Shown: in pieces, positions 30,891 to 45,194 of the stretch
Position numbering within the stretch: position 1 is the stretch's first letter
Layout of the letters: each line of letters starts with the position of its first letter
Assembly: GCA_963827165.1 (NCBI GenBank)
Contig: CAWGZR010000005.1
Coordinates: 448,001 to 512,000, forward strand
Direction of reading: 5' to 3'
DNA length: 64,000 bases
Origin: Candidatus Bathyarchaeota archaeon
Lineage (GTDB): Archaea; Thermoproteota; Bathyarchaeia; Bathyarchaeales; Bathycorpusculaceae
Made by a program: the position numbers and the translations under genes
Notes under the pieces: model-generated
Database searches by the model: none
What the model saw: the letters and a program-made list of their open reading frames with translations, nothing else
Told to the model about the DNA's origin: nothing

Positions 30891-31509
30891 GCGCTTGAAA
30901 ACTTTTCACGTATGCAAGGACCTCGTAGGCCTGTTCCTTGGAAATATGCTGTTCAGATAGAGATTTTACGAGATCAGAAACTTTAGCCAAAGCGTGCACT
31001 CTAAAGCCCAGTTTCTCCAAGTTTTCCTTGCCTCCCTGCTCCCGGTTAACAACTACAAGGAAATCTTTGACGACGCCCCCTAGTTCCTGAAGAGGCTTGA
31101 TACCTTCAATTTTGGATAGCCCCTCACTTATAACATCATCAAAGAAAAGTATTTTATCGCCTCTTTCTACGTCGGCGCCGGCAATTCTGCCCGTTACTCC
31201 ATAAGACTTATCCTCTTTCCGCACTATGATGCAAGGTAGATCAAGCTTACTGGCAATGCTTGGAACAATCAGCGCCCCCTTAAGCTCGATTGAGGCCAAC
31301 TTGTTTATTCCGTTGGCAACAACTATTTTCTTGGCCTGCTCAGCAGCGGCATCGACTACAATGCAAAGTTGCTGTGGCGCAGCCAAGAGACGGGCAAGGT
31401 CAATATAATATGGGCTCGTTGCACCCGACTTGATTTTGAAGTCCCCGAATTTTAGGCATCCTGACAGGTAGAGAGCGTTAGCCACTTTATCAATTGTGCT
31501 AGACGACAT
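30874..31509 (-). CDS. pyrE: Orotate phosphoribosyltransferase
   Basis: FGDFKIKSGATSPYYIDL, VRKEDKSYG, FFDDVISEG PRPP loop. Confidence 0.9.
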   Translation of the reverse strand: MSSSTIDKVANALYLSGCLKFGDFKIKSGATSPYYIDLARLLAAPQQLCIVVDAAAEQAKKIVVANGINKLASIELKGALIVPSIASKLDLPCIIVRKEDKSYGVTGRIAGADVERGDKILFFDDVISEGLSKIEGIKPLQELGGVVKDFLVVVNREQGGKENLEKLGFRVHALAKVSDLVKSLSEQHISKEQAYEVLAYVKSFQAPKNTT

Positions 31510-31579
31510 TTCATTTTCCTCAGGTGTGAATGTAAACTTCGAAATTTAACCCTTTATCCCACTCGAAAGGAGTATCCGG

Positions 31580-32557
31580 TTAAGCTACTAAATCTGCGAT
31601 ATCTACGCTGTGCTCGTAAATCTGTCTTAGGAAAGATGCTGTAGCCAAGATTTGAGGCATCAGATCCACCGAAGCCCTTTTCGCGACACTTTCAATGCTT
31701 GCCGAGGCCGCGTCAACTTCTACATGCATGCGGCGCACGCTTGCGGCTAAAGCGATGTCTTTTGTAACAAAAGACTTCAATGCTTGCTCATGAGCGCCGT
31801 AACAGATAGTTTCCAACTCAACAAGTAACTTTTGTAGCTCGCCCGAAAATTTATGTCCGTTTAACGCAATGGCTTTTGAGGCAACTTGCACGCATGCGTC
31901 GCCGATTCCTTCGATCAAACTCGCAGCTAAACGGTAATCTAAGCATTCAATCGGCGTTATCCCGAGCTTCTCATTTAATCTTGGATTCTGAATTATAGTC
32001 CGCAAAATCCTAACAAGCAAAAAATACAGCCGGTTACTTTCATCGTCCCGCGCAATAACGTTCTTGGCCAATTCAACGTCCCCGTAAACAAAAGAGTTTG
32101 CCGCATCACGAATCATCCCTGCAACGATGGCGTAGTTTCGCTGCAGTATTTTTTCTGGCGAAGTAGAAGGCTGCTGCTGCATTAGACTGTGAAGCGAAAT
32201 TTTTGAGCTGGTTTCCTCGAAAATCTCTAATCCGGAAAGAGAGCTTGCAGTCGATTTGACAATGGCCCTAGCCGCGGAATCGATTCTGTCTTTTGCTTCA
32301 ATGTCAATTGTGTCGTAGCCTAGAAGGTATCGGCCAACAATCTCTCGTCCAAGATTCGGACCGACAGTTAAAGTAACAGTTCGGGTTGGGGGTTCAGCGT
32401 CATATTCGGAGTCAACGATGAGTTTTCCGTCGTTGGTTATGTCTATACAGACTAGAGCGCCTTTTTTGAGCCCTTTCTTTTTAGCCCAATCTCTTGGTAA
32501 GCAAACGAAAAATGTGCCTGTGGGCGTTTGTTGGATCTTGCGTAGATCAGCCGTTAA
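31580..32557 (-). CDS. phoU: AbrB-PhoU phosphate uptake regulator; full-length frame has no ATG/GTG/TTG start
   Basis: Frame extends without stops upstream of 32182 to ADLRKIQQTPTGTFFVCLPRDWA (AbrB domain); in-frame TGA at 32564-32566. Confidence 0.85.
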   Translation of the reverse strand, partial: LTADLRKIQQTPTGTFFVCLPRDWAKKKGLKKGALVCIDITNDGKLIVDSEYDAEPPTRTVTLTVGPNLGREIVGRYLLGYDTIDIEAKDRIDSAARAIVKSTASSLSGLEIFEETSSKISLHSLMQQQPSTSPEKILQRNYAIVAGMIRDAANSFVYGDVELAKNVIARDDESNRLYFLLVRILRTIIQNPRLNEKLGITPIECLDYRLAASLIEGIGDACVQVASKAIALNGHKFSGELQKLLVELETICYGAHEQALKSFVTKDIALAASVRRMHVEVDAASASIESVAKRASVDLMPQILATASFLRQIYEHSVDIADLVA

Positions 32558-32787
32558 GATACCTCACAGATGATATAACACATCTAAACTACGGTTCAAT
32601 TATATAAATTAATTTAGTTTTGACTAATCAATGGCGAAAAGAAGAGAGGCCGAAGGCGGGTTTCTATAGGTAAAAAGCCTCTGAAGCAGAACTTAAGCAA
32701 ATACCCCCTTAGAACGAAAAACGGTAAATAAGTCATAGACATAACAGGGTAAACATAAAGCTGTTCGAACCGGAGACCAAGCGAAGA

Positions 32788-34368
32788 ATGATGAGTGGGC
32801 AGGAAAAACTTCAAAGAGCAATCCAAGCAACAATCGCGGCTGGGTACCAGTTAGACAGCGAAGCGTTTGAGTTTCTGAGCCAAAACGCAGAAACGACCGA
32901 TCCAGTAGGCATAATGGACATAGCCCTTCAAAGGCTTTCTGACCTGCAAGAAAAACCATTTTTCATAGACAAGGTTTTCCTGGAAACTCTGGTTCAGCAG
33001 CTCACAGTTCCAACAATTACAACCAGAGAACCCGAACCCGAGCCGCAACAAAGCACAGTTGAGCAACCGCCTTCGCAGGTAATAGATCAAACTGGCTCAG
33101 CTGAAGGCAGGTTTTACCCTTACGCCAAAGACATAAAGGCCGAAATCGCGATTCTAGAAGACGCAACAGGCAAGCTTAGCTCTAACGGAACCATTGATGA
33201 GTACCTTCTGTATTTTCAAGATAGGTTTAGGCGGCTGGAGCATTTGCTAAGGCAAAGAATAGATGTGAGAGCGGCAACGCCGATACTTGAAGCATTAAAG
33301 TCTCCTGCAAAAACAAAACTCAAAATAATCTGCATGGTAAGCGAGAAAAGAGATTCAAAAAACCATATCGTTCTTTCAGTGGAAGACCTTCAAGGAACCG
33401 CCACCGTTTTGATTCCTCAAAAAGCCCCAGAAGATGTCCGAAAAAAAGCCCTGATGCTGTTGCCCGACACAGTTGTATGCTTAGCAGTAATCAAAACGCG
33501 TACCAATCTTTTCCTTGCAGAGGATATTATTTTTCCAGAAATTGGGAAAAAAACTCAGCAGAGAGCGCAAGAACCAATCTACGTTGTTTTAACTTCGGAC
33601 CTTCATATCGGGAGCACCAAATTTGAAAAGCAAGCTTTCAGGCGGTTCATCCTGTGGCTCAGGGGGAAATATGGGGACGAGCAAATGAGGGAGATAGCGG
33701 GCAGGGTAAAGTACCTCCTGATTGCAGGAGATATAGTTGACGGAGTCGGAGTGTATCCGGGGCAAGCAAAAGAATTATCGATAAGAGATGTTCATAAACA
33801 ATACGACTTCGCATTCAAATACCTCGAAAAAATCCCTAGCTACATCGAAGTAATTATATCTCCAGGCAACCATGACGCAGCGCGAAAAGCCTTGCCTCAG
33901 CCAGCAATAGCTGAAGGCTACTTGAAGGGTATGCAGGGAAAAAGCAACATCCGCTCCGTCGGCAGCCCATGCTTGCTCAGTTTACACGGGGTTGAGGTTT
34001 TGATGTACCATGGTCGTAGCTTAGACGACATTATCGGTGTAGTGCCGGGGATGGATCATGATCATCCCGAAAAAGCGATGAAGCTTCTCATGCAGAGTCG
34101 ACATTTGGCTCCTGCATATGGAGGAAAAACCATGCTTTCCCCCGAAAACCGTGACTATCTAGTTATTGATAGGGTACCAGACATCTTTCACGCAGGGCAC
34201 ATTCACGTGTTAGGCTATTGCAATTACCGTGGGGTGCTCGTCGTTAATTCGGGCGGCTGGCAGGAACAAACCGATTACATGGAAAAGCTGGGGTTAGTTC
34301 CTACACCTGGAAAGGTTCCAGTGGTGAACCTGCAAACGCTTGAAACCACAGTGCTTTCTTTTCTTTAG
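32788..34368 (+). CDS. polD1: DNA polymerase D small (proofreading) subunit DP1
   Basis: SDLHIGS, AGDIVDGVGVYPGQ, PGNHD, YHGRSLDD, RHLAPAYG, HAGHIH. Confidence 0.95.
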   Translation: MMSGQEKLQRAIQATIAAGYQLDSEAFEFLSQNAETTDPVGIMDIALQRLSDLQEKPFFIDKVFLETLVQQLTVPTITTREPEPEPQQSTVEQPPSQVIDQTGSAEGRFYPYAKDIKAEIAILEDATGKLSSNGTIDEYLLYFQDRFRRLEHLLRQRIDVRAATPILEALKSPAKTKLKIICMVSEKRDSKNHIVLSVEDLQGTATVLIPQKAPEDVRKKALMLLPDTVVCLAVIKTRTNLFLAEDIIFPEIGKKTQQRAQEPIYVVLTSDLHIGSTKFEKQAFRRFILWLRGKYGDEQMREIAGRVKYLLIAGDIVDGVGVYPGQAKELSIRDVHKQYDFAFKYLEKIPSYIEVIISPGNHDAARKALPQPAIAEGYLKGMQGKSNIRSVGSPCLLSLHGVEVLMYHGRSLDDIIGVVPGMDHDHPEKAMKLLMQSRHLAPAYGGKTMLSPENRDYLVIDRVPDIFHAGHIHVLGYCNYRGVLVVNSGGWQEQTDYMEKLGLVPTPGKVPVVNLQTLETTVLSFL

Positions 34369-34382
34369 AAGCCTTGTTCCCT

Positions 34383-35622
34383 TCATAGCTGAGCGTTGGT
34401 TTTGCGGGTTGCTTGTGGAGAATAATTGATCAGTTGGCTAAAACGAGCGTCGTCTGTGAATACGTCTCGAATGAGGCTTCTTGAAATTTCAAGTCTGATT
34501 TTTTTGGTTCTGCCGTACCTACCCATGCTAACGACCTTGGCATTCACAAGGCCCATCGAGTCAAGCTCATTTATCAGGGTGCCTAACCGACGCTGAGTCA
34601 GAAGACCAGCGCCGAATTCGCCGCACAACTCATTGTAAACGTCGTAAATTTCACCGGTTGTGGCGTTTGGCTTGTTTAGATGGTAAACACTTAGAAGCAC
34701 AAGTTTTGAGTGAAGCGTCAAGTTTTTGAGAGCTTCCACCACACGATTATGCTCAATATGTTTTTCTGCTAAACGTACATGTTCCTCTGTGATCGTAGCG
34801 GCACCCTGGCGTTCAGCAACCTCGCCTGCCACACGAAGCAGATCCAGAGCTCGACGTGCGTCTCCGTGCTCAGCAGCAGCCAAAGCCGAGCAGACACTCA
34901 GGGCTGGCTCAGTCAAAACGTTCTCGCGAAAAGACAGTTTAGAACGTTCCGAAAGAATGTTTCTAAGTTCCGCCGCGTCGTACGGTCTGAAAACCAATTC
35001 TTCCTCACTAAGTGAGCTGAAAACCCGGGGATCCAAGAACTCTTTCAACCGAAGGTCATTTGAAATGCCGATAATTGAAACTCGACTTTTCTTTAGTGTT
35101 TCATTTATTCGGGTTAGCTCATACATGAAAGCGTCTCCCTGATCTTTTATCAAGGCGTCGATTTCGTCAAGCACAATTATGAAAATGATTTTAGAAGAGT
35201 CAAGGCCTGCTCTGAACCTGTCAAAGACTTCTCCAACCGACAAACCCGTGAAAGGAATTGTCATACCTACACTTTGACTTAGAGCCGCGAAAACCCGGTA
35301 TTCTGAACCGGTCATTCTGCAATTTATGTAACAGAATTTTACCTAGGGAACCGTACTCTTTTGCCTTAAACTCAAGATGGCTCAAAACATGTTTGGCAAC
35401 TGCTGTTTTACCTGTGCCTGTTTTTCCGTAGATAAAAATGTTAGAGCATCTTGCATTTTTCAGAACTGGAGCAACCGTTTGACCCAGCAACTTTATTTGC
35501 TCCTCTCTATGGGGTAGCTTCTCAGGAACGTAATCGGTCCTAAGCACTTCTCGATCTTTGAATAATTTGACCCCATTCACGAAGCTTTCAAACACTTCAT
35601 CTAACACATTTGGATTCGCCAT
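34383..35622 (-). CDS. cdc6: Orc1/Cdc6 replication initiator, split by a single +1 frameshift near 35342
   Basis: 5' part LPHREEQI, YGKTGTGKT; 3' part VKFCYINC, VLDEID, HGDARRALDLL, SMGRYGRTK. Confidence 0.93.
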
Positions 35623-35660
35623 TCTCCCCACTTCCCCATTTTCAGAGGTACAACCGATAG

Positions 35661-36236
35661 TTCGAGTGGAACAGATAAAGGATGCAGTACAAAAAACTGG
35701 TGGTGAAGCACAACAATCCTAAAAAACCATGATGAGACTGCATCACAAGCGGATAAATCTACGTTGACACACACCCCAAAGTTTCTACTGGAAAAAATTA
35801 AGACGAGAAAGAAAAAACTAATAATTATAATATTTATTATATATACTCTGAGTAATAAGTTGTAAATTAGTATATTAAGAATAATGATTTAGAATTTTAA
35901 ATAGAAAATCTACAAAAATTTTAAGAAATATTTTGAGATTCCGCCTCGCCAAAATGCGTCGACAGGAAATGCAGGGGTGTGTCTTCTTGGATCAAATTAT
36001 GGAAAAATCTTTGAAAAACCATGGAGATTGACCATTTTCATCATGACCTGGGGAAACTTGGTTTAAGAAGTCTAATTACAAAAATCTTCTCTTCACAAAC
36101 CCTTTTTCCGTTCACAAAACTGTGAATACGTGTGAAATAGCATTGAATTTGTCGCTTAATTGCCTTTGTTTTCTCTAAAATTACCTTGTTTCTGTCTTTT
36201 TACAGTGAACAAGGCACCCCTACGCTTCCTCTGGAA
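35661..36236. other. Replication origin oriC: four ORB-like boxes and an AT-rich DUE (about 35794-35940)
   Basis: ORBs: TTCGAGTGGAACAGATAAAGGATG (+, 35661, degenerate), TTCCAGTAGAAACTTTGGGGTGT (-, 35771-35793), GTCGACAGGAAATGCAGGGGTGT (+, 35958-35980), TTCCAGAGGAAGCGTAGGGGTGC (-, 36214-36236); directly upstream of cdc6. Confidence 0.9.
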
Positions 36237-36429
36237 AAGCAGAACCGAGCAGTAACAACAATCTTTCAGCCATTTGACTTTCATGTGAAGTCAGTTATGT
36301 TCAATAGAATGAAGATCTAACGTCTTTACCAGAAATAAGCTCACAATCAGTTTTTCTTTTCACTGCTTTCACCATAACAGCTATAAGGTGTGAAGTGTAA
36401 AGTTGTGAACTCCTTAAGGTGTGCGCCTG

Positions 36430-36861
36430 ATGCCAGCTCGAAAAATGCGCGTGGAGCTGTTTGATAACGATGGCAACCGATACACCATCGCATTCGAGGG
36501 TCAAGTGACCCGAGACAAAGCTCTACGACTCTTAGACCTCGTGGAACTCCTAGGCGGCGCGCCAAGCGAAAACCCTTCATCAAACCCAAGTTCTTCAATC
36601 ACAAATGGGTTGCCTTCGCGTTTCGATAAGGTCCAGTTAGTGATTCAAAAGAGCTTCCCGTTGATTTGGTTTTCTTCCAAGGATATCCAATCTGTTTACG
36701 AGCAAGATCTTAAAGAGCCGATAGGCCTAAGCACCGTATCAACTTACCTTTCAAGAATGGCCGTCAAAGGCATGCTGCTGAGAACCGGCGGATCCAACAA
36801 TCTGAAGTACAGAAGCGCACCAAACATCCCTCAAGCAACTCTAAGACAAACCATAAAGTAG
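36430..36861 (+). CDS. Uncharacterised protein: small N-terminal alpha/beta domain plus C-terminal winged helix
   Basis: FSSKDIQSVYEQDLKEPIGLSTVSTYLSRMAVKGML...KYR wHTH pattern; AAGGTG SD before ATG 36430. Confidence 0.8.
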   Translation: MPARKMRVELFDNDGNRYTIAFEGQVTRDKALRLLDLVELLGGAPSENPSSNPSSSITNGLPSRFDKVQLVIQKSFPLIWFSSKDIQSVYEQDLKEPIGLSTVSTYLSRMAVKGMLLRTGGSNNLKYRSAPNIPQATLRQTIK

Positions 36862-36871
36862 ACGAACGAAT

Positions 36872-37663
36872 TTAGGTTGCGGGTGTTTCTTCGGTTTTCT
36901 TTAACAGCTTTTCCATCTCAGATTTGATTGTGTACTTGAAGGGTATTTTTCCGGCTTCGCGCTCAACGTAGCCGCCCTCGTAGAGTTTTTTCATCAGTCT
37001 CGCAGTGTGCTCTCTGCTTAGATGTACTTGCTCCTTTATTTCAGGCGCAGTTTTGGGTCCTTCCGAAGATAGTTTCTCCAGCACTATTATCTCCGTTTCT
37101 GTTAGGGCGGCCATTGCTTTATCGCGTTTGATTGGCATAACTGGCATAAGGGTTTCAACTTGGACTTCTGGAGGAGCGGACAACTTTTGGATTTGTTCTT
37201 CGAATCCAATGATCTTTACTTTCACTGCTTCTTGGGCCGCTTCGATGTCTTGGATCTTTGTTTCCAAACCCGCTAAACCCGACAGAATGCTTGTACTAGT
37301 CAGTTTAAGGCTTTGCGACACAACATTGACTTGTCCTTCTATAGGCGTTAGCCTCTTCTCTAAATTGTCCGCTTTTTTTATGCCTTCGTCAGCCCTGGCA
37401 AAGTTTCCCTCTATCTTGAAGGCGACCAGGTCTATTTTCTCTGCTTCACGCTTGAGTTCCCTGTGAAAGCTCATGACAATGTCTTCAACAGTGTTCTTAG
37501 CTTTCTCATATTCCCGTTGTGCCTTGCGTATCTGATTGTAATATTCAGCTGAAGTTGCAACTGTAACTGATGCTAAAGCAGCTAAGATTACAAGCGTGAG
37601 GTCAATCGTGATTTGCCACCCCTGTGACGCATTCGTGACATCGTCGGTTGCATCACACATCAC
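36872..37663 (-). CDS. Membrane-anchored coiled-coil protein with C-terminal winged helix (start uncertain: 37660 ATG or 37609 ACG)
   Basis: IDLTLVILAALASVTVATSA hydrophobic anchor, about 120 aa of heptad-rich sequence, LTETEIIVLEKL...SREHTARLMKKLYEGGYVER wHTH. Confidence 0.8.
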   Translation of the reverse strand: MMCDATDDVTNASQGWQITIDLTLVILAALASVTVATSAEYYNQIRKAQREYEKAKNTVEDIVMSFHRELKREAEKIDLVAFKIEGNFARADEGIKKADNLEKRLTPIEGQVNVVSQSLKLTSTSILSGLAGLETKIQDIEAAQEAVKVKIIGFEEQIQKLSAPPEVQVETLMPVMPIKRDKAMAALTETEIIVLEKLSSEGPKTAPEIKEQVHLSREHTARLMKKLYEGGYVEREAGKIPFKYTIKSEMEKLLKKTEETPAT

Positions 37664-37890
37664 AATTCTCCATGGACTTTTTAAGGTTTGTGGTAATGCG
37701 AGTGCGTGTTTGATATGATATCACACATCACGTTTAATTTTCTTCTACGAACGCCTTAGGATACGCCCTGTGGATCTCCTTACTTTAAGCCTATTTTCTA
37801 ATTCCAACGTTCAAGAAGCCTGATTCATTTTAGCTTCTTAGCCTTCCTCTTCTTGCGTAGAAAACTGTAGAAAATGCGTGATTTGTGACG

Positions 37891-38370
37891 TCACATTAAC
37901 GATTCTGATGGACTAGAAAGCCGTTTTAGGCTCGTTTCTAGCTCATGTCGTATGATTTCTATTACCTTTAGATGGTCTTTTAGTTCTTCTTCCTTACCTG
38001 GCATGTCTTGATGTGCCTCCAGATATTCGTGCAATTTATTGGCTATTTCGAGATACGGGTCAAGGGTTGTGCTCTCAAACACGCCCAAATACCCTAGAAG
38101 TAATACCGTATAGATCGATTTTATGACGTTTTCTTTGGACTGTCGTAGTGTCCTGTTAAACGATCCGCGACTTATTTTAGCCTTGGTTAGCCTTAAATTG
38201 GCTTTTTCATCGTATTTTAGCTGTTTGCCTGATAAATTCTCGGCTAAAACATCAATTAGGAGAGTTTCGAGCTGAGTTTTTGTCAATTGGCTGTTTTTCG
38301 CGAGTATTTGGACAATGGGATCGTTTAGTGCCCCGTTTAGCCACGCTTGTACGCCGTCTTTTAGCTTCAA
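37891..38370 (-). CDS. Uncharacterised HTH-like protein
   Basis: LTKTQLETL...YDEKA...ISRGSFNRTLRQS resembles a sigma-region-4/LuxR-type HTH; GGAGG SD. Confidence 0.7.
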   Translation of the reverse strand: MKLKDGVQAWLNGALNDPIVQILAKNSQLTKTQLETLLIDVLAENLSGKQLKYDEKANLRLTKAKISRGSFNRTLRQSKENVIKSIYTVLLLGYLGVFESTTLDPYLEIANKLHEYLEAHQDMPGKEEELKDHLKVIEIIRHELETSLKRLSSPSESLM

Positions 38371-38863
38371 ACTTAACGTTCCTCCGTATACTTCAATGAA
38401 TACATTTTTGTATACTGGCTCAAGTTTTTAAGTGTTTGTGGGCGAAAAAGTTGTTAATTGGGCAACGTAACGCCTAGAAATTTACCTAAAAAACGTAAAT
38501 AAGGAATTATCAAAGGTTCTTTTATGAATTAGCCATGAGAATGGCGTATTTACAAAATAGCGGCAAAAGCAATTGAACTCTTGGCGGAGAACTTTACCGT
38601 ATTTTACACAAAAGTTGATAGTTTTTCCCTGAGCATTTTTGTTTGAATCATCCAAAAGTCACACATTCACGGATCTAGTGGTTATTTGTCAATGCTGTTT
38701 GAGCTTTCCAACCCATTTCTTGGCGATTCACTTTCATGTGATGGGTGTGACGTCATTGATCACGCTGCGTCACTGTGATTTATACCCATGAAAGAGCTAA
38801 TGTCACATGATTCTATGGAACGCGTGATGCCTCTGTGATTCGGAGATCTTGCAGGCGAATGCC

Positions 38864-39697
38864 TTAGAAGAGTTCTGAGTATTCTTTTAGTTTGTCGAAA
38901 AGTTCAGGTCTCAGGTCTCTTAGAGTCGGAATGAATGTTTCTGCGCTTTTCAGGTCGCTGTAATCTACTTCGCATGTTACAAAGTCTTCCTCGTCGTATT
39001 TTGCCTTTGCCAAGAGGTCTCCATTTGGACTGACAAGCCTGCTTCCTCCCCAGAATTGAAGGCCATCTTGAACTCCTGCAAGATTCACGTAGGCTACGTA
39101 CGATGTGTTTTCGATTGCTCTAGCGCAGGTTAAGGTTTCAAAGTAGCTTCTGCGAACTGCAGGAGACGCAGAAATGCAAACCATTAGTTGTGCACCTTTC
39201 AGTCGGGTGAGTCTGAGCACTTCTGGGAAGAAAATGTCGTAACAAATGCATAAGCCAATGTTGCCGATGTCTGTTTGAAACGCTGCTGTTTGGTAGCCGG
39301 GGCGAAAATACCTTTTTTCCTCGAAGACGCTGTGAGTCGGTAGGTACATTTTGCGGTATTTTCCGATTAGTCCTTTGGGGCCGACAAAGACGGCGGTGTT
39401 AAAGAGTGTTGCTTGGGTTTTTTCACTCAGCTCAGGCATTCCGAAAATCAGGTGCATTCCTGTTTTTTTGGCAAGCGTTTCAGCCTTCGCAACTGCTGGT
39501 CCAGGAATAGTTTCCGCCATTTCGTAGGCTTGGTCATGAATAACATAACCTGTTAACGACATTTCTGGGAAAATAGCTAGGTCTGCCCCTTGCTCACTGG
39601 CCTTAACGGTTAATTTCTCTATTTTCTGAAAGTTCGCATCTTTATCCTCTCGCCTACTGCTTATCTGGGCAAGGGCAACCTTGATTTTGTCTTTCAT
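38864..39697 (-). CDS. Carbon-nitrogen hydrolase (nitrilase superfamily)
   Basis: FPE, YRK, ICYD catalytic triad motifs. Confidence 0.9.
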   Translation of the reverse strand: MKDKIKVALAQISSRREDKDANFQKIEKLTVKASEQGADLAIFPEMSLTGYVIHDQAYEMAETIPGPAVAKAETLAKKTGMHLIFGMPELSEKTQATLFNTAVFVGPKGLIGKYRKMYLPTHSVFEEKRYFRPGYQTAAFQTDIGNIGLCICYDIFFPEVLRLTRLKGAQLMVCISASPAVRRSYFETLTCARAIENTSYVAYVNLAGVQDGLQFWGGSRLVSPNGDLLAKAKYDEEDFVTCEVDYSDLKSAETFIPTLRDLRPELFDKLKEYSELF

Positions 39698-39708
39698 TTG
39701 CTTTCCCT

Positions 39709-40551
39709 TCAATACATGTTTCTCGGAAGCCTAAAATCTGTTCCTACCGATCTAAAGCCTATTTTAGGCGCAATGGGCATTCTTCGTTTATGTTCATTTC
39801 TTAGCCATCTACGTTTTACGGCTTCGACAACAGATTTTTCTAAGGCAAGCTGATCGGCAATTTCCTGAGTTGTCATGAACCGCTCTAAGCCGAAGAGAAT
39901 TAGATCTAGGGTTTCGTATTTCATGCCGAGTTCCGTTTCAGCCATTTGCGAGGGCCAAAGCGCTGGCGTGGATGGTTTTAACGCAAGCTCTTTTTGGATT
40001 CCCATGTGAAGGGCGAGTTTGCGAACCTGTGTTTTGTATAGATCCATAATTGGTGTTATGTCCGCGGCTGCATCCCCCCACTTAGTGAAGTAACCCATCA
40101 TCGTTTCCGACTTATCCGAGCTGCCGCATACAATCTTGTTGAATTTGTTCGCGTAGTAGTAGAGATATATCATTCGGGTTCTTGCCTTGATGTTTCCTTT
40201 GCAGAGATTGTCCTTTGGGTCAAAAACTGGAATTTGCTCGTAGAAACTCTTCGTAACCTTGGTGATGTCGCAGACGCTGGTTTCTATTTGAAATTGGTCT
40301 GCAACGGCTTTGGCGTCGTTGATGTCTTTTTGGCTGAAGTTTTCCTCTTCAGGAAGCATAAGTGCTGAGACGTTTTTTCCACCTACTGCGAGACTTGAAA
40401 GTGCAGCTATCGTGCCGCTGTCGATTCCGCCGGACAAACCGAGGACGATCCCTTCGGCTCCGGCGTTTTCAACGTATTCTTTGATAAAGCGGCAGATTCT
40501 TGTTTGTGTTTCTGAAAAGTTGATGTCGAAGACGGAAGGCGTAAGTTTCAA
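39709..40551 (-). CDS. nadE: NAD+ synthetase (synthetase domain only)
   Basis: GLSGGIDS, GNIKARTRM, GYFTKWGD, NEHKR. Confidence 0.94.
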   Translation of the reverse strand: MKLTPSVFDINFSETQTRICRFIKEYVENAGAEGIVLGLSGGIDSGTIAALSSLAVGGKNVSALMLPEEENFSQKDINDAKAVADQFQIETSVCDITKVTKSFYEQIPVFDPKDNLCKGNIKARTRMIYLYYYANKFNKIVCGSSDKSETMMGYFTKWGDAAADITPIMDLYKTQVRKLALHMGIQKELALKPSTPALWPSQMAETELGMKYETLDLILFGLERFMTTQEIADQLALEKSVVEAVKRRWLRNEHKRRMPIAPKIGFRSVGTDFRLPRNMY

Positions 40552-40650
40552 TCGGCTTCACCAGCCACTATACTCTTGGTTTGTAGGCAAGTATTTAAGG
40601 ACAGGCATAAATATTACTGAACAATACCCTCGATTTGAAGGCTGTTATGA

Positions 40651-40920
40651 TTGGGTCGAAGAAGAAAGAAAGTTGTTCATATTCCAAAGAAACGTTTACC
40701 AAAATTCTTTTCCTGTCCCAAATGCGGGAAAGAAACAGTTAAGGTTGACATTTCCAGAGAGGAAGGCGGTCACGCTGTTGCTCAATGTAGTGGCTGTGGG
40801 CTGAAGGAGGAATTTCCAGTTAAGCAAGCTCAAGGCGAAGTTGACGTTTACTGCATGCTAACCGATCGAGTTTACGGTTCCGGCAAGAGAGCGCCGTTGC
40901 CAAACTTAAAGAAAGAGTAA
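40651..40920 (+). CDS. elf1: Transcription elongation factor Elf1
   Basis: MGRRRKK basic N-terminus, FSCPKCG...CSGCG, VDVYC. Confidence 0.9.
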   Translation: MGRRRKKVVHIPKKRLPKFFSCPKCGKETVKVDISREEGGHAVAQCSGCGLKEEFPVKQAQGEVDVYCMLTDRVYGSGKRAPLPNLKKE

Positions 40921-40936
40921 TCGAAGGATTATCGGC

Positions 40937-41689
40937 ATGCTTGGGTCTATCGAAAAATACTTGCTCGAAAAAATAAAGGCTGAAGGCTCCATTCATCTAA
41001 CACTTATAGATCCAGAGAAAGTTACAGCCCAAGATGCTTCATGCATCGCAGAAAACTCCAAAAACAGTGGAACAGCTGCCATAATGATTGGAGGCTCAAC
41101 ATTTATCTCCCAAGCTCACCTCGACGACGTCGTCAAAGCAATCAAGACCCGCGTAAGCATTCCAACAATACTTTTCCCAAATAATGTGACTGGTATAAGT
41201 TGTCACGCAGACGCCATATGGTTCATGTCACTTCTAAACTCGGTTGACCCTTACTTTCTTATCGGCGCCCAAATCTTGGGAGCTCCGCTTGTTAAGAAAT
41301 ACGGTTTGGAACCTTTGTCCATGGGGTACATAATTGTTGGTGAAGGAGGAACAGCAGGTATCGTGGGAAAAGCAATATCTGTGCCCTACAACAAGCCGGA
41401 GCTTGCGGCGGCCCATGCGTTAGCCGGGCAATATCTCGGTATGCGTTTCATTTATCTTGAAGGCGGTTCAGGAGCGAAGAACCCAGTGCCTCCTGAGATG
41501 ATTCAGGCAGTCAAGCATGTGATTGAAATACCTCTCATCGTAGGCGGCGGGATCAAAACTAAAGAACAAGCAATAGCCGCTGCTTCTGCAGGCGCCGACA
41601 TCATAGTCACGGGCAACGTTACTGAGACAGCAGATTCTAAACAGAGAGTCGCTGAAATCATAGCGGCAATAAAAAACATCAAGGCTTAA
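40937..41689 (+). CDS. Geranylgeranylglyceryl phosphate synthase (group II)
   Basis: TLIDPEK, IMIGGST, ILFP, YLEGGSGA, VGGGI, VTGN. Confidence 0.92.
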   Translation: MLGSIEKYLLEKIKAEGSIHLTLIDPEKVTAQDASCIAENSKNSGTAAIMIGGSTFISQAHLDDVVKAIKTRVSIPTILFPNNVTGISCHADAIWFMSLLNSVDPYFLIGAQILGAPLVKKYGLEPLSMGYIIVGEGGTAGIVGKAISVPYNKPELAAAHALAGQYLGMRFIYLEGGSGAKNPVPPEMIQAVKHVIEIPLIVGGGIKTKEQAIAAASAGADIIVTGNVTETADSKQRVAEIIAAIKNIKA

Positions 41690-41780
41690 ACGTCTGCAGT
41701 TTGTTTTCTTGATTTTCTGGTTTGTTTTTAGAAAAGCAAAATAACCCATCAGGATATATCTTGCCGAGGGAAGCTGCACT

Positions 41781-44700
41781 TTGAACATTAGCAAGGGCTA
41801 TCGAAGCTACGTTGATGCAATGGAAAACGAGCTGAAGCACTTGTATTCAATAAGCGACAGCGCAAGATCCTTGGGATTAGATCCCGCCGTGAAAACGGAA
41901 TGCATCATCGCCCAAGACATCGCTGACCTAGTGGAAGGGCTAGTGGGACCCAAGCAAGTGGCGTTAAGCATCAGAGAATTAAGCACAAAGATGCAGCGTG
42001 AAGAAATAGCCTTCAAAGTGGCTGAAGAAATCGTCCAGGGCAAATTCGGCACAACGGACCCCGAGAAACTAGCTGAACAAGCGATTAGGACAGCCCTCGC
42101 AATCTTCACCGAAGGGTTGACCGCAGCGCCTATTCAAGGCATCGCCCAAGTGAAGATTAAAACCAACGCCGATCGCACCCGCTACCTTGCCATTTACTTC
42201 GCTGGCCCAATTCGTTCGGCAGGCGGAACCGACCAGGCGTTAACTTTGGTTGTAGGAGACTTCGTGAGACAACAGCTCGCGTTGGACAGGTATAAGCCCA
42301 CGGATGAAGAAATCTCCCGATTCACCGAGGAGCTTAGGCTGTATGAACGGTCAGTAGGCCGGTTCCAATATCACATTCCCGACGACGAGTTAAGAAAAGC
42401 CCTCAACTTGATTCCGGTTGAATGCACGGGCACCGAATCCGACCCGGTTGAAGTGTCTTCCTATCGGAATCTTCCGCGAGTTGAAACGAACAGGGTGAGA
42501 GGGGGCGCCTTGAGAGTTGTTAACGATGGAATAGTAGGGAGAGCCCAAAAAGTCTATGTAATTATCAACAAAGTAGGTCTTCAGGGTTGGGATTGGCTTA
42601 AAGAGTTTAAGAAGAAATCTGAGAAGAAGTCAGGCGGCTTCATGGATGATGTGATCGCTGGGCGACCTATCTTTGCTTTTCCTTCCCGTCGTGGTGGATT
42701 CAGACTTCGATATGGCAGGTCGCGGAACACGGGCTTGTCAGCCGTCGGCATTCATCCTGCGACGATGCTAGTGCTTGAAAACTTTTTGGCGGCGGGAACC
42801 CAGATGCGACTTGAGCTTCCTGGGAAAGGTTGCGTTACCTTACCTGTGGATTCAATTGAACCTCCAGTTGTCTTGCTCAAAGACAACTCGGTTGTCATGG
42901 TTACAATGAGCAATTTTTCCGATGTTAAGGGTAAAATCCAGAAAATCCTGTTCTTAGGCGACATTCTCATCAGTTTCGGAGACTTCCTTTACTCGAACAA
43001 GAGTCTTCCTCCATCAGGGTACGTTGAAGAATGGTGGACAAAAGATCTCCATAGCCAAATTAAAAGCAGGTTCACATCTGACATATCAAAAGCCGCTGAA
43101 GCCGCTCAAGTTTCCAGGGAAAAAATCAAAGGTTTTCTGGACGACCCATTCATAAACAAGCCGTCGGCTAAAGAAGCAATTCTTCTCAGCCTTAATCTAA
43201 ATGTTCCCTTGCATCCCAGTTTCACCTTCTTCTGGTCAAACTTAACCGCTCTTCAAGAAGTTGAAGCGCTAAGAAACTGGTTGGATTCCACTGAAACAGT
43301 TGTTACCCAAGGGATAATTTGTAGCATCGTCGGCGAGTTCAATCATGAAGTCGTGGCGATGTTGAGGAAGATTTTTGCTCCACACAAAATAGTTAACGGC
43401 AAAATCGTTCTGGAAGGAGAAAACGCTACGGCTCTGGCTTTCAGTCTCGGCTACGGGACCACGAGAACGGTCGATGTTTCTCAACCCATCTGCTTGGCGG
43501 AAGTGATCAGCAGGCTTGCTGGAGTGCAGGTTAAGGATAAGGCTCCAACCTACGTTGGCGGACGCATGGGACGACCTGAAAAAGCTAAGCGACGCGAGAT
43601 GAAACCTCTGGTCCACGTTCTTTTCCCCGTGAGTTTAGCCGGCGGCACGCACCGTGACCTTTTAGAGGCTGCAAAGCAGGACCACGTTTTTGTTGAAATG
43701 GTGAGGCGCAAGTGCCTCAACTGCAAAAGTTACACGCGAAGGATAAAATGCCCAAATTGCGGCGGCGAAACCGTAGAGGAGAAATGTTGCCCAAGATGTG
43801 GAAAACCATTGAAAGACAACCCTTGCCCAACCTGCAAGGCAGAACCGGTCGACTTCCAACGCCAATCAGTTAACTTCAGAGAGTTGGTTGATAGTGCCTG
43901 CAAATCGCTTGGCTATTCAGCTCCAAAACAGTTGCGTGGTGTCAAGGGTTTAACCAACCTTAACAAAACCCCTGAAATCATCGAGAAGGGTATTTTGCGA
44001 GCAAAATACGAGTTGTCCGTTTACAAGGACGGAACGATTCGTTTTGACGGCACAAACGCTCCGCTAACCCATTTTACTCCTGCAGAAGTTGGAGTTCCGG
44101 TTGAAAAAATAAAACAGTTAGGTTACGATTACGACACGCATGGTTTGCCACTGACAGATCCCAATCAGGTCTGTGAACTCAGGATCCAGGATGTTGTAAT
44201 CCCTTGGAAAGCGGGCGAATACTTCCTGCAGATCGCGGCTTTCATTGATGACTTATTGATCAGAGTCTACAAACTCCCCCCTTACTACAACGTAAAGAAG
44301 CCAGAGGATCTCGTCGGACAGCTCATTTTCGGTTTAGCTCCCCATACATGTGCATGCATTTTGGGGCGTGTCGTCGGATACACAGATCGAAACGTGATTT
44401 ATGCCCATCCAATCTGGCACTCAGCTAAACGCCGTGACTGCGACGGCGATGAAGACGCCATAATGCTTGCCCTTGACACGCTTCTGAATTTTTCCCGCGT
44501 CTACTTGCCCGCTCAAATAGGCGGAATCATGGATGCGCCGATACTCCTAATTCCGTTTGTCAACACCAAAGAGGTTCAAAGGCAAGCACACGACTTTGAC
44601 GTCGACCAAACTTATCCGGTAGAGTTCTACCTAAAAACTTGTGATAAAAGCGAAGCTGGACCCGTAAGCTCGATTATGGATGTCATTAGCCACAGACTTG

Positions 44701-45194
44701 GAACCGAAGCCCAGTACGAAGGTTTCCAGTACACGACACCAGTAACCAACATAAACATCGGCAATGCAAACAGCTCCTACAAAGAATTCAAGTCTATGGC
44801 AGACAAACTTAACAAGCAGCTGGAGCTTGGGGAAAGAATAGATGCTGTGGACGTTAAACGTGTAGCGCTAAAAGTTTTAACAACCCACCTCATCAGGGAC
44901 ATAGCGGGGAACTTGAGGGCTTTCTCAACCCAGTCATTTAGGTGCAAGTCATGCAACAAAAAGTTTCGCCGATTGCCGCTTAAAGGAAAATGCTCGTTCT
45001 GCGGCGGAAAACTCACTCTCACCGTTTACCAGGGGAACATTGAGAAATATTTGGTAGCTGCTCAGCAACTCGTTGATAAATACGGTTTACCTACCTACTA
45101 CACCCAGCGCATGGTTCTCATAAAAGAAGAAATAGCTTCCATGTTCGACAACAAAAAGCCTAAACAAGCCAAACTTTTCGATTTCGGTAGCTAA
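41781..45194 (+). CDS. polD2: DNA polymerase D large subunit DP2 (no intein evident)
   Basis: YFAGPIRSAGGT, GFRLRYGRSRN, RMGRPEKA, AKRRDCDGDED, Zn fingers. Confidence 0.97.
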   Translation: MNISKGYRSYVDAMENELKHLYSISDSARSLGLDPAVKTECIIAQDIADLVEGLVGPKQVALSIRELSTKMQREEIAFKVAEEIVQGKFGTTDPEKLAEQAIRTALAIFTEGLTAAPIQGIAQVKIKTNADRTRYLAIYFAGPIRSAGGTDQALTLVVGDFVRQQLALDRYKPTDEEISRFTEELRLYERSVGRFQYHIPDDELRKALNLIPVECTGTESDPVEVSSYRNLPRVETNRVRGGALRVVNDGIVGRAQKVYVIINKVGLQGWDWLKEFKKKSEKKSGGFMDDVIAGRPIFAFPSRRGGFRLRYGRSRNTGLSAVGIHPATMLVLENFLAAGTQMRLELPGKGCVTLPVDSIEPPVVLLKDNSVVMVTMSNFSDVKGKIQKILFLGDILISFGDFLYSNKSLPPSGYVEEWWTKDLHSQIKSRFTSDISKAAEAAQVSREKIKGFLDDPFINKPSAKEAILLSLNLNVPLHPSFTFFWSNLTALQEVEALRNWLDSTETVVTQGIICSIVGEFNHEVVAMLRKIFAPHKIVNGKIVLEGENATALAFSLGYGTTRTVDVSQPICLAEVISRLAGVQVKDKAPTYVGGRMGRPEKAKRREMKPLVHVLFPVSLAGGTHRDLLEAAKQDHVFVEMVRRKCLNCKSYTRRIKCPNCGGETVEEKCCPRCGKPLKDNPCPTCKAEPVDFQRQSVNFRELVDSACKSLGYSAPKQLRGVKGLTNLNKTPEIIEKGILRAKYELSVYKDGTIRFDGTNAPLTHFTPAEVGVPVEKIKQLGYDYDTHGLPLTDPNQVCELRIQDVVIPWKAGEYFLQIAAFIDDLLIRVYKLPPYYNVKKPEDLVGQLIFGLAPHTCACILGRVVGYTDRNVIYAHPIWHSAKRRDCDGDEDAIMLALDTLLNFSRVYLPAQIGGIMDAPILLIPFVNTKEVQRQAHDFDVDQTYPVEFYLKTCDKSEAGPVSSIMDVISHRLGTEAQYEGFQYTTPVTNINIGNANSSYKEFKSMADKLNKQLELGERIDAVDVKRVALKVLTTHLIRDIAGNLRAFSTQSFRCKSCNKKFRRLPLKGKCSFCGGKLTLTVYQGNIEKYLVAAQQLVDKYGLPTYYTQRMVLIKEEIASMFDNKKPKQAKLFDFGS

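Follow-up and report, generated by a model that had tools for sequence, protein, structure and literature searches.

Three linked genes beside a predicted replication origin in Bathyarchaeia: a candidate self-targeting DNA-binding module of Thermoproteota

What might three small genes be doing immediately beside the predicted replication origin of an archaeon? The question is raised by a 64,000-nucleotide stretch of DNA (hereafter, the window) from Candidatus Bathyarchaeota archaeon (assembly GCA_963827165.1, contig CAWGZR010000005.1, positions 448,001 to 512,000), in which a spacer bearing origin recognition boxes (ORBs) is followed by gene (i) (36421-36861, plus strand; 146 aa, or 143 aa if read from the ATG at 36430), gene (ii) (36872-37663, minus strand; 263 aa), and gene (iii) (37891-38370, minus strand; 159 aa). 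An earlier note, made from the sequence of this DNA, had reported three open reading frames (ORFs) beside the origin, which the ORF list bears out, and had proposed that they form an origin-positioning apparatus. We consider it reasonably probable that the trio is instead an old, vertically inherited, self-targeting DNA-binding module that lies adjacent to the origin in Thermoproteota. The range of this module takes in Bathyarchaeia, AmoA-positive Nitrososphaeria-like genomes, and several other families.

The spacer between cdc6 and gene (i) (35632-36420; 789 bp, GC 0.35) looks like an origin in its sequence features. Pattern matching located two ORB-like 24-mers on the minus strand, element 1 at 35772-35795 (reverse complement TTTTCCAGTAGAAACTTTGGGGTG) and element 2 at 36215-36238, against 0.05 matches expected from shuffles; a third, at 35960-35981 on the plus strand (match at about 35964-35979), came to light in the opposite orientation through the pair AGGAAATGCAGGGGTG / AGGAAGCGTAGGGGTG, which falls at positions 333 and 584 of the spacer. 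The other strand of the repeats reads TTCCAG..GAAAC...GGGGTG, which we take to be the ORB form. Because the third copy is inverted relative to elements 1 and 2, the AT-rich candidate unwinding element (35796-35935, as judged from sequence reading and GC content) sits between inverted ORBs; GC falls to 0.13 over the 100 nt from spacer position 177, the lowest such value in the spacer, and is 0.30 in the 400-nt window 35800-36199. Several ORBs in both orientations, an AT-rich stretch, and an adjoining orc1/cdc6 gene are the marks of archaeal Orc1/Cdc6-dependent origins, and all of them are found here. ORB G-string words are likewise 12-fold enriched in the origin spacers of 18 order-level relatives. 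In the measured Bathyarchaeia loci the spacer is about 650-810 bp long in all but two (outliers of 2.1 and 3.3 kb), with three at 546-578 bp, and in the AmoA-positive family it measures about 430-470 bp.

How constant is the association of the trio with this origin? Across 60 relatives and the genome itself, cdc6 is present in 60 of 61 genomes, gene (iii) in 56, gene (i) in 55, and gene (ii) in 54, and the 20 loci mapped in relatives form one block, PhoU-DP1-cdc6-ori-(i)-(ii)-(iii)-[nitrilase-type hydrolase-NadE]-zinc-ribbon gene-GGGP synthase-DP2, in which DP1 and DP2 are the subunits of DNA polymerase D (PolD) and GGGP stands for geranylgeranylglyceryl phosphate. Among the best 80 loci matching gene (iii), nearly all are titled Bathyarchaeia or Bathyarchaeota, and a few are labeled otherwise. 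A class-wide draw of 151 Bathyarchaeia genomes, with the cdc6-1 orthologue called at E ≤ 1e-40, contained gene (iii) in 120 genomes, cdc6-1 in 103, gene (ii) in 101, and gene (i) in 91. Where both genes of a pair shared a contig, (i) and cdc6 were no more than 5 kb apart in 82 of 83 cases, (iii) and cdc6 no more than 10 kb apart in 77 of 79, and (ii) and (iii) no more than 10 kb apart in all 92. Because the genomes are related, these counts overstate independence.

By phyletic pattern, the trio splits in two. Gene (i) tracks cdc6: 91 genomes carry it together with cdc6-1 and none carries it alone, while cdc6-1 occurs alone in 12 genomes and neither gene in 48. Genes (ii) and (iii) track each other; 28 genomes carry (ii) and 30 carry (iii) without cdc6-1, mostly from family f24, and 25 genomes carry (iii) without (ii). 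In family f24 itself, cdc6-1 and gene (i) are each found in one of 27 genomes, and in the mapped loci (L145-L147) DP2 and DP1 enclose (iii) and (ii), which are still present but separated from each other by an inserted HypF gene.

The linkage extends beyond the class. Among 301 Thermoproteota genomes, the gene (iii) profile matches 148 and the gene (i) profile 198. All 43 genomes of family f38, which encodes archaeal AmoA (4/4 tested), match the gene (i) profile, and the order DP2-GGGPS-(iii)-(ii)-(i)-ori-cdc6-DP1 (GGGPS, GGGP synthase) is shared by all four AmoA-positive loci; what the earlier note said of similar genes near cdc6 in Nitrososphaeria thus holds for these Nitrososphaeria-like genomes, and the tight synteny with cdc6/oriC is found both across the class and outside it. 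In 20 genomes from outside Bathyarchaeia, gene (iii) was at most 3.2 kb from cdc6 in 11, 11-15 kb away in two, 22-152 kb away in six, and on another contig in one. Among the matches listed outside the class, 81 genomes have both (i) and (iii); the two genes share a contig in 66 of these and are no more than 3 kb apart in 58, and they remain neighbors also in those families in which neither is any longer close to cdc6.

The second strand of evidence comes from short repeated sites, for which the 3.13-Mb genome was scanned in windows of 400 bp (TGTGAA/TTCACA) and 250 bp (GTGAY/RTCAC). A TGTGAA/TTCACA array (36092-36410; seven sites at 36092-36404 and 12 GTGAA cores) fills the half of the origin that adjoins gene (i), with ORB element 2 inside it, and it is the sole place in the genome with at least five sites per 400 bp. 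In the origin spacers of 18 order-level relatives, TGTGAA occurs 89 times against 7.9 expected (11.3-fold), with at least two copies in 17 of the 18, and apart from the ORB G-string no word is enriched more. This array is a candidate operator or iteron-like array of protein (i).

GTGAY/RTCAC sites, for which the genomic background is 2.5 per kb, form two further arrays. Array A (37608-37732; seven sites) lies over the 5' end of gene (ii) and a TATA-like box at 37680-37689, starting about 25 nt downstream of the TATA-like CCTTAAAAAG, and array B (38658-38840; nine sites per 250 bp) lies 290-470 bp upstream of gene (iii). Only three places in the genome reach at least seven sites per 250 bp, and two of them flank gene (iii): array B is the densest window (position 38651, nine sites) and array A the second (37651, seven sites). 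The third, C1:28801, falls inside a repetitive surface-protein ORF and was set aside as a coding coincidence. Array A contains GTGATGTGTGAT twice (37652-37663 and 37720-37731); taken alone as a motif, this sequence gave two matches, a number equaled in 2 of 100 shuffles, and it is meaningful only within the GTGAY array. In 32 pooled loci, GTGAY reaches a density of 23.6 per kb upstream of (ii) and one of 9.4 upstream of (iii), compared with 1.9 for origins and 2.7 for all other sequence. The layout is conserved as well, with two direct GTGAT copies 7 nt apart followed by inverted RTCAC at steps of about 11 nt, and spacings of 7 and 11 bp dominate in 23 loci. The seemingly coding 'MCDATD' at the start of gene (ii) is putative operator sequence, which would explain the stop codon that relatives carry there.

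Which array belongs to which gene? Loci that lack one member of the trio point to a pairing of (i) with the origin array and of (ii) with GTGAY. Where (iii) and (i) are present but (ii) is missing (L141-L144 and L158-L163), no GTGAY array is found at the genes in any of the 10 loci, and in six of these (L158-L163) TGTGAA is each time densest upstream of (i), at 3-5 copies per 400-bp window. Conversely, in L152-L157, six loci that lack (i) but carry (ii), (iii), and cdc6, the spacer between (iii) and (ii) always contains GTGAY sites, at 6-13 per 250 bp, and a TGTGAA array is missing, TGTGAA reaching at most 1-3 copies per 400 bp elsewhere in the locus. The AmoA-positive family retains GTGAY (5-7 sites in about 190 bp, 4/4 loci), which fits the near-invariant recognition region of protein (ii). 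In its origins (L131-L134), GTTAAC stands in place of TGTGAA, with 4-5 copies per approximately 470 bp against 0-3 in about 15 kb, interleaved with the ORBs; GTTAAC is a candidate site set for the protein (i) homologue of ammonia oxidizers. The predicted arrays at the 5' regions of the genes themselves come close to binding limited to their own promoters, an outcome that the earlier note had set against its own proposal.

Protein (ii) has the anatomy that the earlier note had described, namely, an N-terminal single-pass anchor, a heptad-rich, coiled-coil-like rod, a Pro-rich linker, and a C-terminal winged helix of the TrmB/MarR type. Its strongest hydrophobic 19-mer spans residues 18-36 (Kyte-Doolittle 2.22), with no Lys or Arg in the preceding 12 residues and Lys/Arg after it; 104 heptad-like residues (charged heptad pattern) are spread across 39-163, and a Pro-rich stretch at about 170-185 leads into the winged helix at 187-246. 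This domain scores above the curated Pfam cut-offs for TrmB (31.4 bits vs. 25.6), MarR (29.0 vs. 24.6), and HTH_27 (26.4 vs. 22.2), and it resembles Lrs14 (NCBIfam 1e-6, under the cut-off). The protein does not belong to the TrmB family proper, as it ends about 15 residues past the winged helix, and no effector domain was found in it. The charge pattern predicts an N-out/C-in topology, which would place the winged helix in the cytoplasm; a cleaved export signal is implausible because the DNA-binding domain would then end up outside the cell.

The anchor is kept in most orthologues. A 19-residue Kyte-Doolittle mean of at least 1.8 occurs within the first 40 residues in 17 of 18 order-level orthologues, whose N-terminal flanks of 0-18 residues are free of Lys and Arg in 16 of the 18 and whose C-terminal flanks carry 2-5 of these residues, a pattern unlike that of a cleaved signal. 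Among 14 more distant homologues, 10 have the N-terminal helix, and one more does if an AUH codon is taken as the start. Within the genus, the hydrophobic stretch is kept in frame in 29 of 30 loci. The mean fraction of majority residues is 0.76 for the winged helix and 0.36 for the rod, with 0.60 both for the juxtamembrane segment and for the Pro-rich linker that leads to the winged helix; the winged helix is nearly invariant from Bathyarchaeia to ammonia oxidizers.

Protein (i) turned out to be built differently from the two-domain winged-helix protein that had been described. Its AlphaFold2 (AF2) model (mean predicted local distance difference test score, pLDDT, 70.7) contains a beta-hairpin plus one helix at 4-42 (pLDDT 63-73), a disordered linker at 42-60, and a single canonical winged helix at 64-129 (pLDDT 80-91), so that gene (i) (36430-36861) would encode a small beta-beta-alpha domain, a linker, and one winged helix of the MecI/BlaI type. 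Foldseek placed this winged helix with MecI/BlaI, Fur, and ArsR-type repressors and the centromere binder AspA, the best match being MecI (1sd7_A; E 3.3e-3, probability 1.00). By profile, Pfam Penicillinase_R matches 19 of 21 members of the protein (i) family (best 2.5e-5); the protein of the window itself scores 15.8 bits, under the cut-off of 22.6. MecI/BlaI are thus the closest to the winged helix of protein (i) both by modeled fold and by profile. In MecI/BlaI proteins, an N-terminal winged helix is followed by a helical dimerization domain, and they act with a sensor protease; in protein (i), by contrast, the winged helix is C-terminal, behind the beta-beta-alpha domain, and no sensor-protease partner lies nearby. 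A derivation from the winged helix of Cdc6 was also considered and rejected: hhalign against a 34-sequence alignment of Cdc6 winged helices gave a probability of 1.3%, and Pfam Cdc6_C matched 8 of 21 family members, weakly.

Protein (iii), the most conserved of the trio (about 90% identical within the genus), belongs to a family that Pfam does not cover. AF2 models it, at modest confidence (pLDDT 65.4), as all-helical; searches against Pfam, NCBIfam, and PDB sequences gave no significant match, and Foldseek with the model gave none at E ≤ 0.001. The sigma-4/LuxR-like label in the earlier note accordingly finds no significant support, the sigma-E region 4 structure (2h27_A) reaching a Foldseek probability of only 0.28 with a template modeling (TM) score of 0.52 on the target. 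DUF134 matched weakly, in 2 of 20 family members (best 0.031) and in one distant representative at 5.8e-4. The family has 4027 homologues at E ≤ 0.001 among 5.8 billion proteins and only 323 clusters among 1.84 billion representatives; among the 120 homologues listed, every named one is called hypothetical and none has a Pfam domain. For residues 1-99, VIA-align ranked DnaA domain IV first: 82 residues aligned with 8btg_A at Z 6.1 (root-mean-square deviation, rmsd, 3.9), and 81 aligned with 1j1v_A at Z 5.8 (rmsd 3.7), values that fall below the trusted level for helical folds. Kinship to DnaA domain IV, for which these matches of Z about 6 were all that was found, was not adopted (hhalign against Escherichia coli DnaA domain IV, 0.2%), and a cyclin/TFIIB-like fold was rejected (Foldseek probability about 0.1, rmsd > 12 Å). 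In P0156, an apparent (iii)-(ii) fusion of 362 aa, the N-terminus resembles (iii) but is followed by an unrelated transmembrane/coiled-coil tail without the (ii) winged helix; the protein may be a frameshift artefact or a lineage-specific fusion and does not serve as a Rosetta stone for the pair.

If the trio is a self-targeting module, its working can be sketched as follows. Protein (i), a soluble winged-helix protein, would bind the TGTGAA array, which lies beside its own promoter and encloses one ORB; in doing so it would regulate its own gene and probably also the expression of cdc6 or the use of the origin. Protein (ii) would sit in the membrane through its N-out/C-in helix, with a rod of approximately 100 residues reaching into the cytoplasm, and its winged helix would bind GTGAY both at the array that covers the start of its own transcription and at the sites around gene (iii), repressing itself and probably (iii), whose helical product travels with (ii). 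Anchored protein (ii) on its array would also bring DNA 1.2-3 kb from the origin to the membrane, whether as a by-product or a purpose, and membrane tethering of origin-proximal DNA is thus a plausible consequence of the module.

Several observations weigh against this reading. The conserved block also holds NadE, the nitrilase-type hydrolase, GGGP synthase, and the zinc-ribbon gene, and since it is conserved as a whole, linkage by itself is weak evidence for an origin function. The assignment of proteins to motifs derives from proximity and co-occurrence in related, non-independent genomes, and the 10 loci without (ii) may stem from few loss events. Single sites in other parts of the genome would escape notice with a motif of five or six bases, which leaves room for a wider regulon. 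Protein (iii) showed no recognized fold in profile and Foldseek comparisons and has no assigned site. As for the anchor, 3 of the 14 distant homologues of (ii) do not have one (families f35, f42, and f49), and 22 of 30 genus members have no ATG, GTG, or TTG between the last in-frame stop and the hydrophobic stretch, so that the anchor may not be translated in those members. A canonical start precedes the stretch in the other eight loci, and an ATC codon directly follows the stop in 19 of the 30; either these genus members use a non-canonical start, or gene callers annotate an anchorless protein. In the window, the frame of gene (ii) is open from the GTG/ATG at 37663/37660, and the start codon is uncertain.

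Two side observations touch on this start. Locus L148, from another family, shows the same pattern, with no canonical start before the hydrophobic stretch. Run X11, from an RNA library, has a contig that matches the window exactly over 37379-37611, in the 5' part of (ii), and whose end falls within ATC (37612-37610), the codon ahead of the hydrophobic stretch; as contigs cannot show transcript ends and the contig comes from one study, this is a weak hint at most.

The foremost alternative is that the locus is a dedicated device for tethering or segregating the origin, in which the GTGAY arrays would act like centromeres, (ii) and (iii) would hold the origin region at the membrane, and (i) would couple it to the initiator. 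As in the ParR/parC layout, where the gene of the binder lies beside its own multi-site target, and as with SegB, a genome-unique site array lies here beside the gene of the presumed binder, the GTGAY arrays at (ii) and (iii) being the two densest windows of the genome. These arrays are 1.2-3 kb from oriC, the linkage to cdc6 holds across classes, and the anchor is almost without an external part, so that protein (ii) cannot sense outside the cell. A centromere-binding winged helix, AspA (5k5q_B/5k5o_C), is among the fold matches of (i), amid many ordinary repressors, and in 10 of the 20 mapped loci a HerA-like ATPase and a NurA-like gene lie between (i) and (ii). However, just as the earlier note had seen no ParA/SegA ATPase, no PF01656 or PF13614 match exists inside the 64-kb window, and neither a HerA-like nor a NurA-like gene was found in the genome; the linked motor NTPase of a centromere system is thus missing. 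Moreover, GTGAY is not enriched in the spacer with the ORBs and the unwinding element (1.9 sites per kb, with 2.7 as the background), of 151 genomes 28 keep (ii) and 30 keep (iii) although cdc6-1 is missing, the 25 genomes with (iii) but not (ii) mean that the set is not obligate, and an array over a transcription start is fully explained by autorepression. Because the motor is missing and (ii) and (iii) outlive the loss of cdc6-1, we regard a dedicated tether as doubtful, while giving it a real chance. From the proposed origin-positioning apparatus, then, the linkage to the origin and the anchor stand, whereas the arrays at the genes' own positions, the occurrence of (ii) and (iii) without cdc6-1, and the missing linked motor count against it.

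A bolder version would make (ii) and GTGAY a motor-less, membrane-anchored, centromere-like tether that fastens the chromosome region near the origin to the cell membrane, and (i) an iteron-like co-factor, interleaved with Orc1/Cdc6 sites, that gates initiation, the two forming an origin-organizing system with (iii). We hold this to be rather unlikely; if true, such a system would be common to Bathyarchaeia and ammonia-oxidizing Nitrososphaeria.

Comparison with known systems helps to place these proposals. ArnR/ArnR1, UBP/ucm, and SegB-type centromere binders are the closest analogues. ArnR and ArnR1 of Sulfolobus acidocaldarius are described as membrane-bound one-component transcription factors; ArnR has a helix-turn-helix domain at the N-terminus, a HAMP domain, a sensing domain, and two C-terminal transmembrane helices, and controls archaellum genes (PMC6396743). 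As predicted for protein (ii), they are archaeal DNA-binding proteins attached to the membrane whose targets are a few promoter boxes (PMC6396743). Protein (ii) differs in having the reverse domain order, with one N-terminal helix, a plain coiled rod, and a C-terminal winged helix, in having neither a HAMP match nor a sensor, and in being encoded beside oriC. UBP is presented as a 111-residue, beta-rich saddle protein with hundreds of genomic sites, its ucm motif occurring at Sulfolobus oriC1 (PMC12141716). A small non-initiator protein with a short motif between ORBs is also the role proposed for (i) with TGTGAA/GTTAAC; unlike the UBP of that account, protein (i) has an unrelated winged-helix fold, is encoded at the origin, and has an array unique in the genome. 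SegB, ParR, and AspA share with the proposed module a site-specific binder and a multi-site target beside its own gene (for SegAB, as covered in PMC7617429), but such systems have a linked ParA-type or actin-like motor and binders that are not known to be membrane-anchored, whereas no motor is linked to the trio. Lastly, TrmB, MarR, and Lrs14 regulators have the winged helix of the protein (ii) C-terminus in common with it; they are soluble, with ligand-binding or dimerization parts, where protein (ii) has an anchor and a long rod instead.

Alternatively, the three proteins could be ordinary transcription factors with targets elsewhere, whose position beside cdc6 would reflect nothing more than the rarity of rearrangements in this chromosome region. 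Consistent with this, the PhoU-DP1-cdc6-...-GGGPS-DP2 block is conserved whole, metabolic genes included, the domains are those of common repressors (TrmB/MarR and MecI/Fur/ArsR folds), and families f46, f51, and f61 have the genes 11-150 kb from cdc6. On the other hand, (i) never occurs without cdc6-1 (91 vs. 0), (i) and (iii) remain adjacent even after leaving cdc6, and the metabolic neighbors drop out of the block while the trio stays. Multi-site arrays occur at the trio locus only, and the near-invariance of the (ii) winged helix from Bathyarchaeia to ammonia oxidizers would be unusual for a lineage-specific regulator. We judge this explanation unlikely. The least probable alternative, to which we give little credence, is that protein (ii) is a membrane-sequestered regulator, inactive at the membrane until proteolysis or some other signal sets it free to act on (iii) and further genes, perhaps with cell-cycle timing: archaeal membrane-bound transcription factors such as ArnR and ArnR1 do exist (described in PMC6396743), and the conserved juxtamembrane segment and Pro-rich linker of (ii) could be a processing site, but no protease or sensor gene is linked to the trio at the locus or in the mapped loci of relatives, (ii) is without an external or recognizable sensor domain, and such a regulator would not need a rod of about 100 residues.

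What would a self-targeting module beside the origin mean? Archaeal chromosome organization and separation are poorly understood, and a cell-cycle review, in its passages on segregation, discusses Sulfolobus and Asgard archaea only (PMC7617429). Literature searches aimed at the module found neither a paper describing it nor a report of origin-adjacent archaeal DNA held at the membrane. To our knowledge, there is no earlier archaeal case of chromosomal DNA being held at the membrane beside an origin. If protein (i) acts at the ORB-interleaved sites, it would be the second non-initiator factor built into an archaeal origin, after UBP/ucm. The module is present in most Bathyarchaeia sampled, and its presence in the AmoA-positive family, with (i) in 43 of 43 genomes, means that it also occurs in relatives of cultured ammonia oxidizers. 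It is also amenable to testing, as it consists of three small proteins, two short motifs, and essentially one array locus per genome.

The neighboring genes complete the picture of the block. To the left of the origin, where the earlier note had placed them, lie orc1/cdc6 (the cdc6-1 orthologue; 34383-35631, minus strand; Pfam Cdc6_C 7.1e-25, Cdc6_lid 1e-24, and AAA_16 1.1e-7) and DP1, the small subunit of PolD (32788-34368, plus strand; DNA_pol_E_B 3.1e-15 and Metallophos 2.9e-11), which marks the left edge of the conserved block and is found beside cdc6 in the loci of relatives too. To the right of the trio follow a small zinc-ribbon gene (40651-40920), GGGP synthase (40937-41689), and DP2, the PolD large subunit (41781-45194), an arrangement seen after the trio in many lineages, including the AmoA-positive family. 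With DP1 and DP2 on either side of the block, both PolD subunit genes flank the origin module. In some relatives (L032-L037, L040-L042, and L048), two co-directional genes lie between (i) and (ii), just downstream of (i), one of them NurA-like with about 330 aa (Pfam NurA at 9.4e-4, which misses the cut-off) and the other coding for a HerA-like ATPase (DUF87 9.8e-13); nine of these 10 loci are outside the genus and one is within it. A tblastn search of the window's genome (94.5% complete) found neither gene. Rfam over 31000-42000 gave no match at E ≤ 0.1, and a scan for bacterial-type promoters and terminators gave no more matches than shuffles.

In the window, cdc6 is read as two overlapping ORFs (34383-35315 and 35221-35631), with 7 nt at the frame break where relatives carry 6 nt and read EYGAKVKFCY. 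A contig from run X1 (depth 12.9) has one letter fewer at 35342, so the split is probably a 1-nt insertion error of the assembly and not a pseudogene; run X1 may be the source sample, and the contigs of run X2 do not cover this position. The contigs of runs X2, X9, and X11 leave gaps along the stretch, from which no conclusion was taken. In the origin spacer, behind 36347, contigs of two runs from different studies carry an extra letter (G in X1, C in X2), which is likely another assembly indel error, or else a strain difference. Two RNA-library contigs from one study cover cdc6, which shows presence in the RNA library only. At the 3' end of gene (iii), a 20-nt element with the palindrome GTGACGTCAC (37876-37895) is an inverted repeat of 38746-38765, to which it is 85% complementary, and the pair brackets gene (iii).

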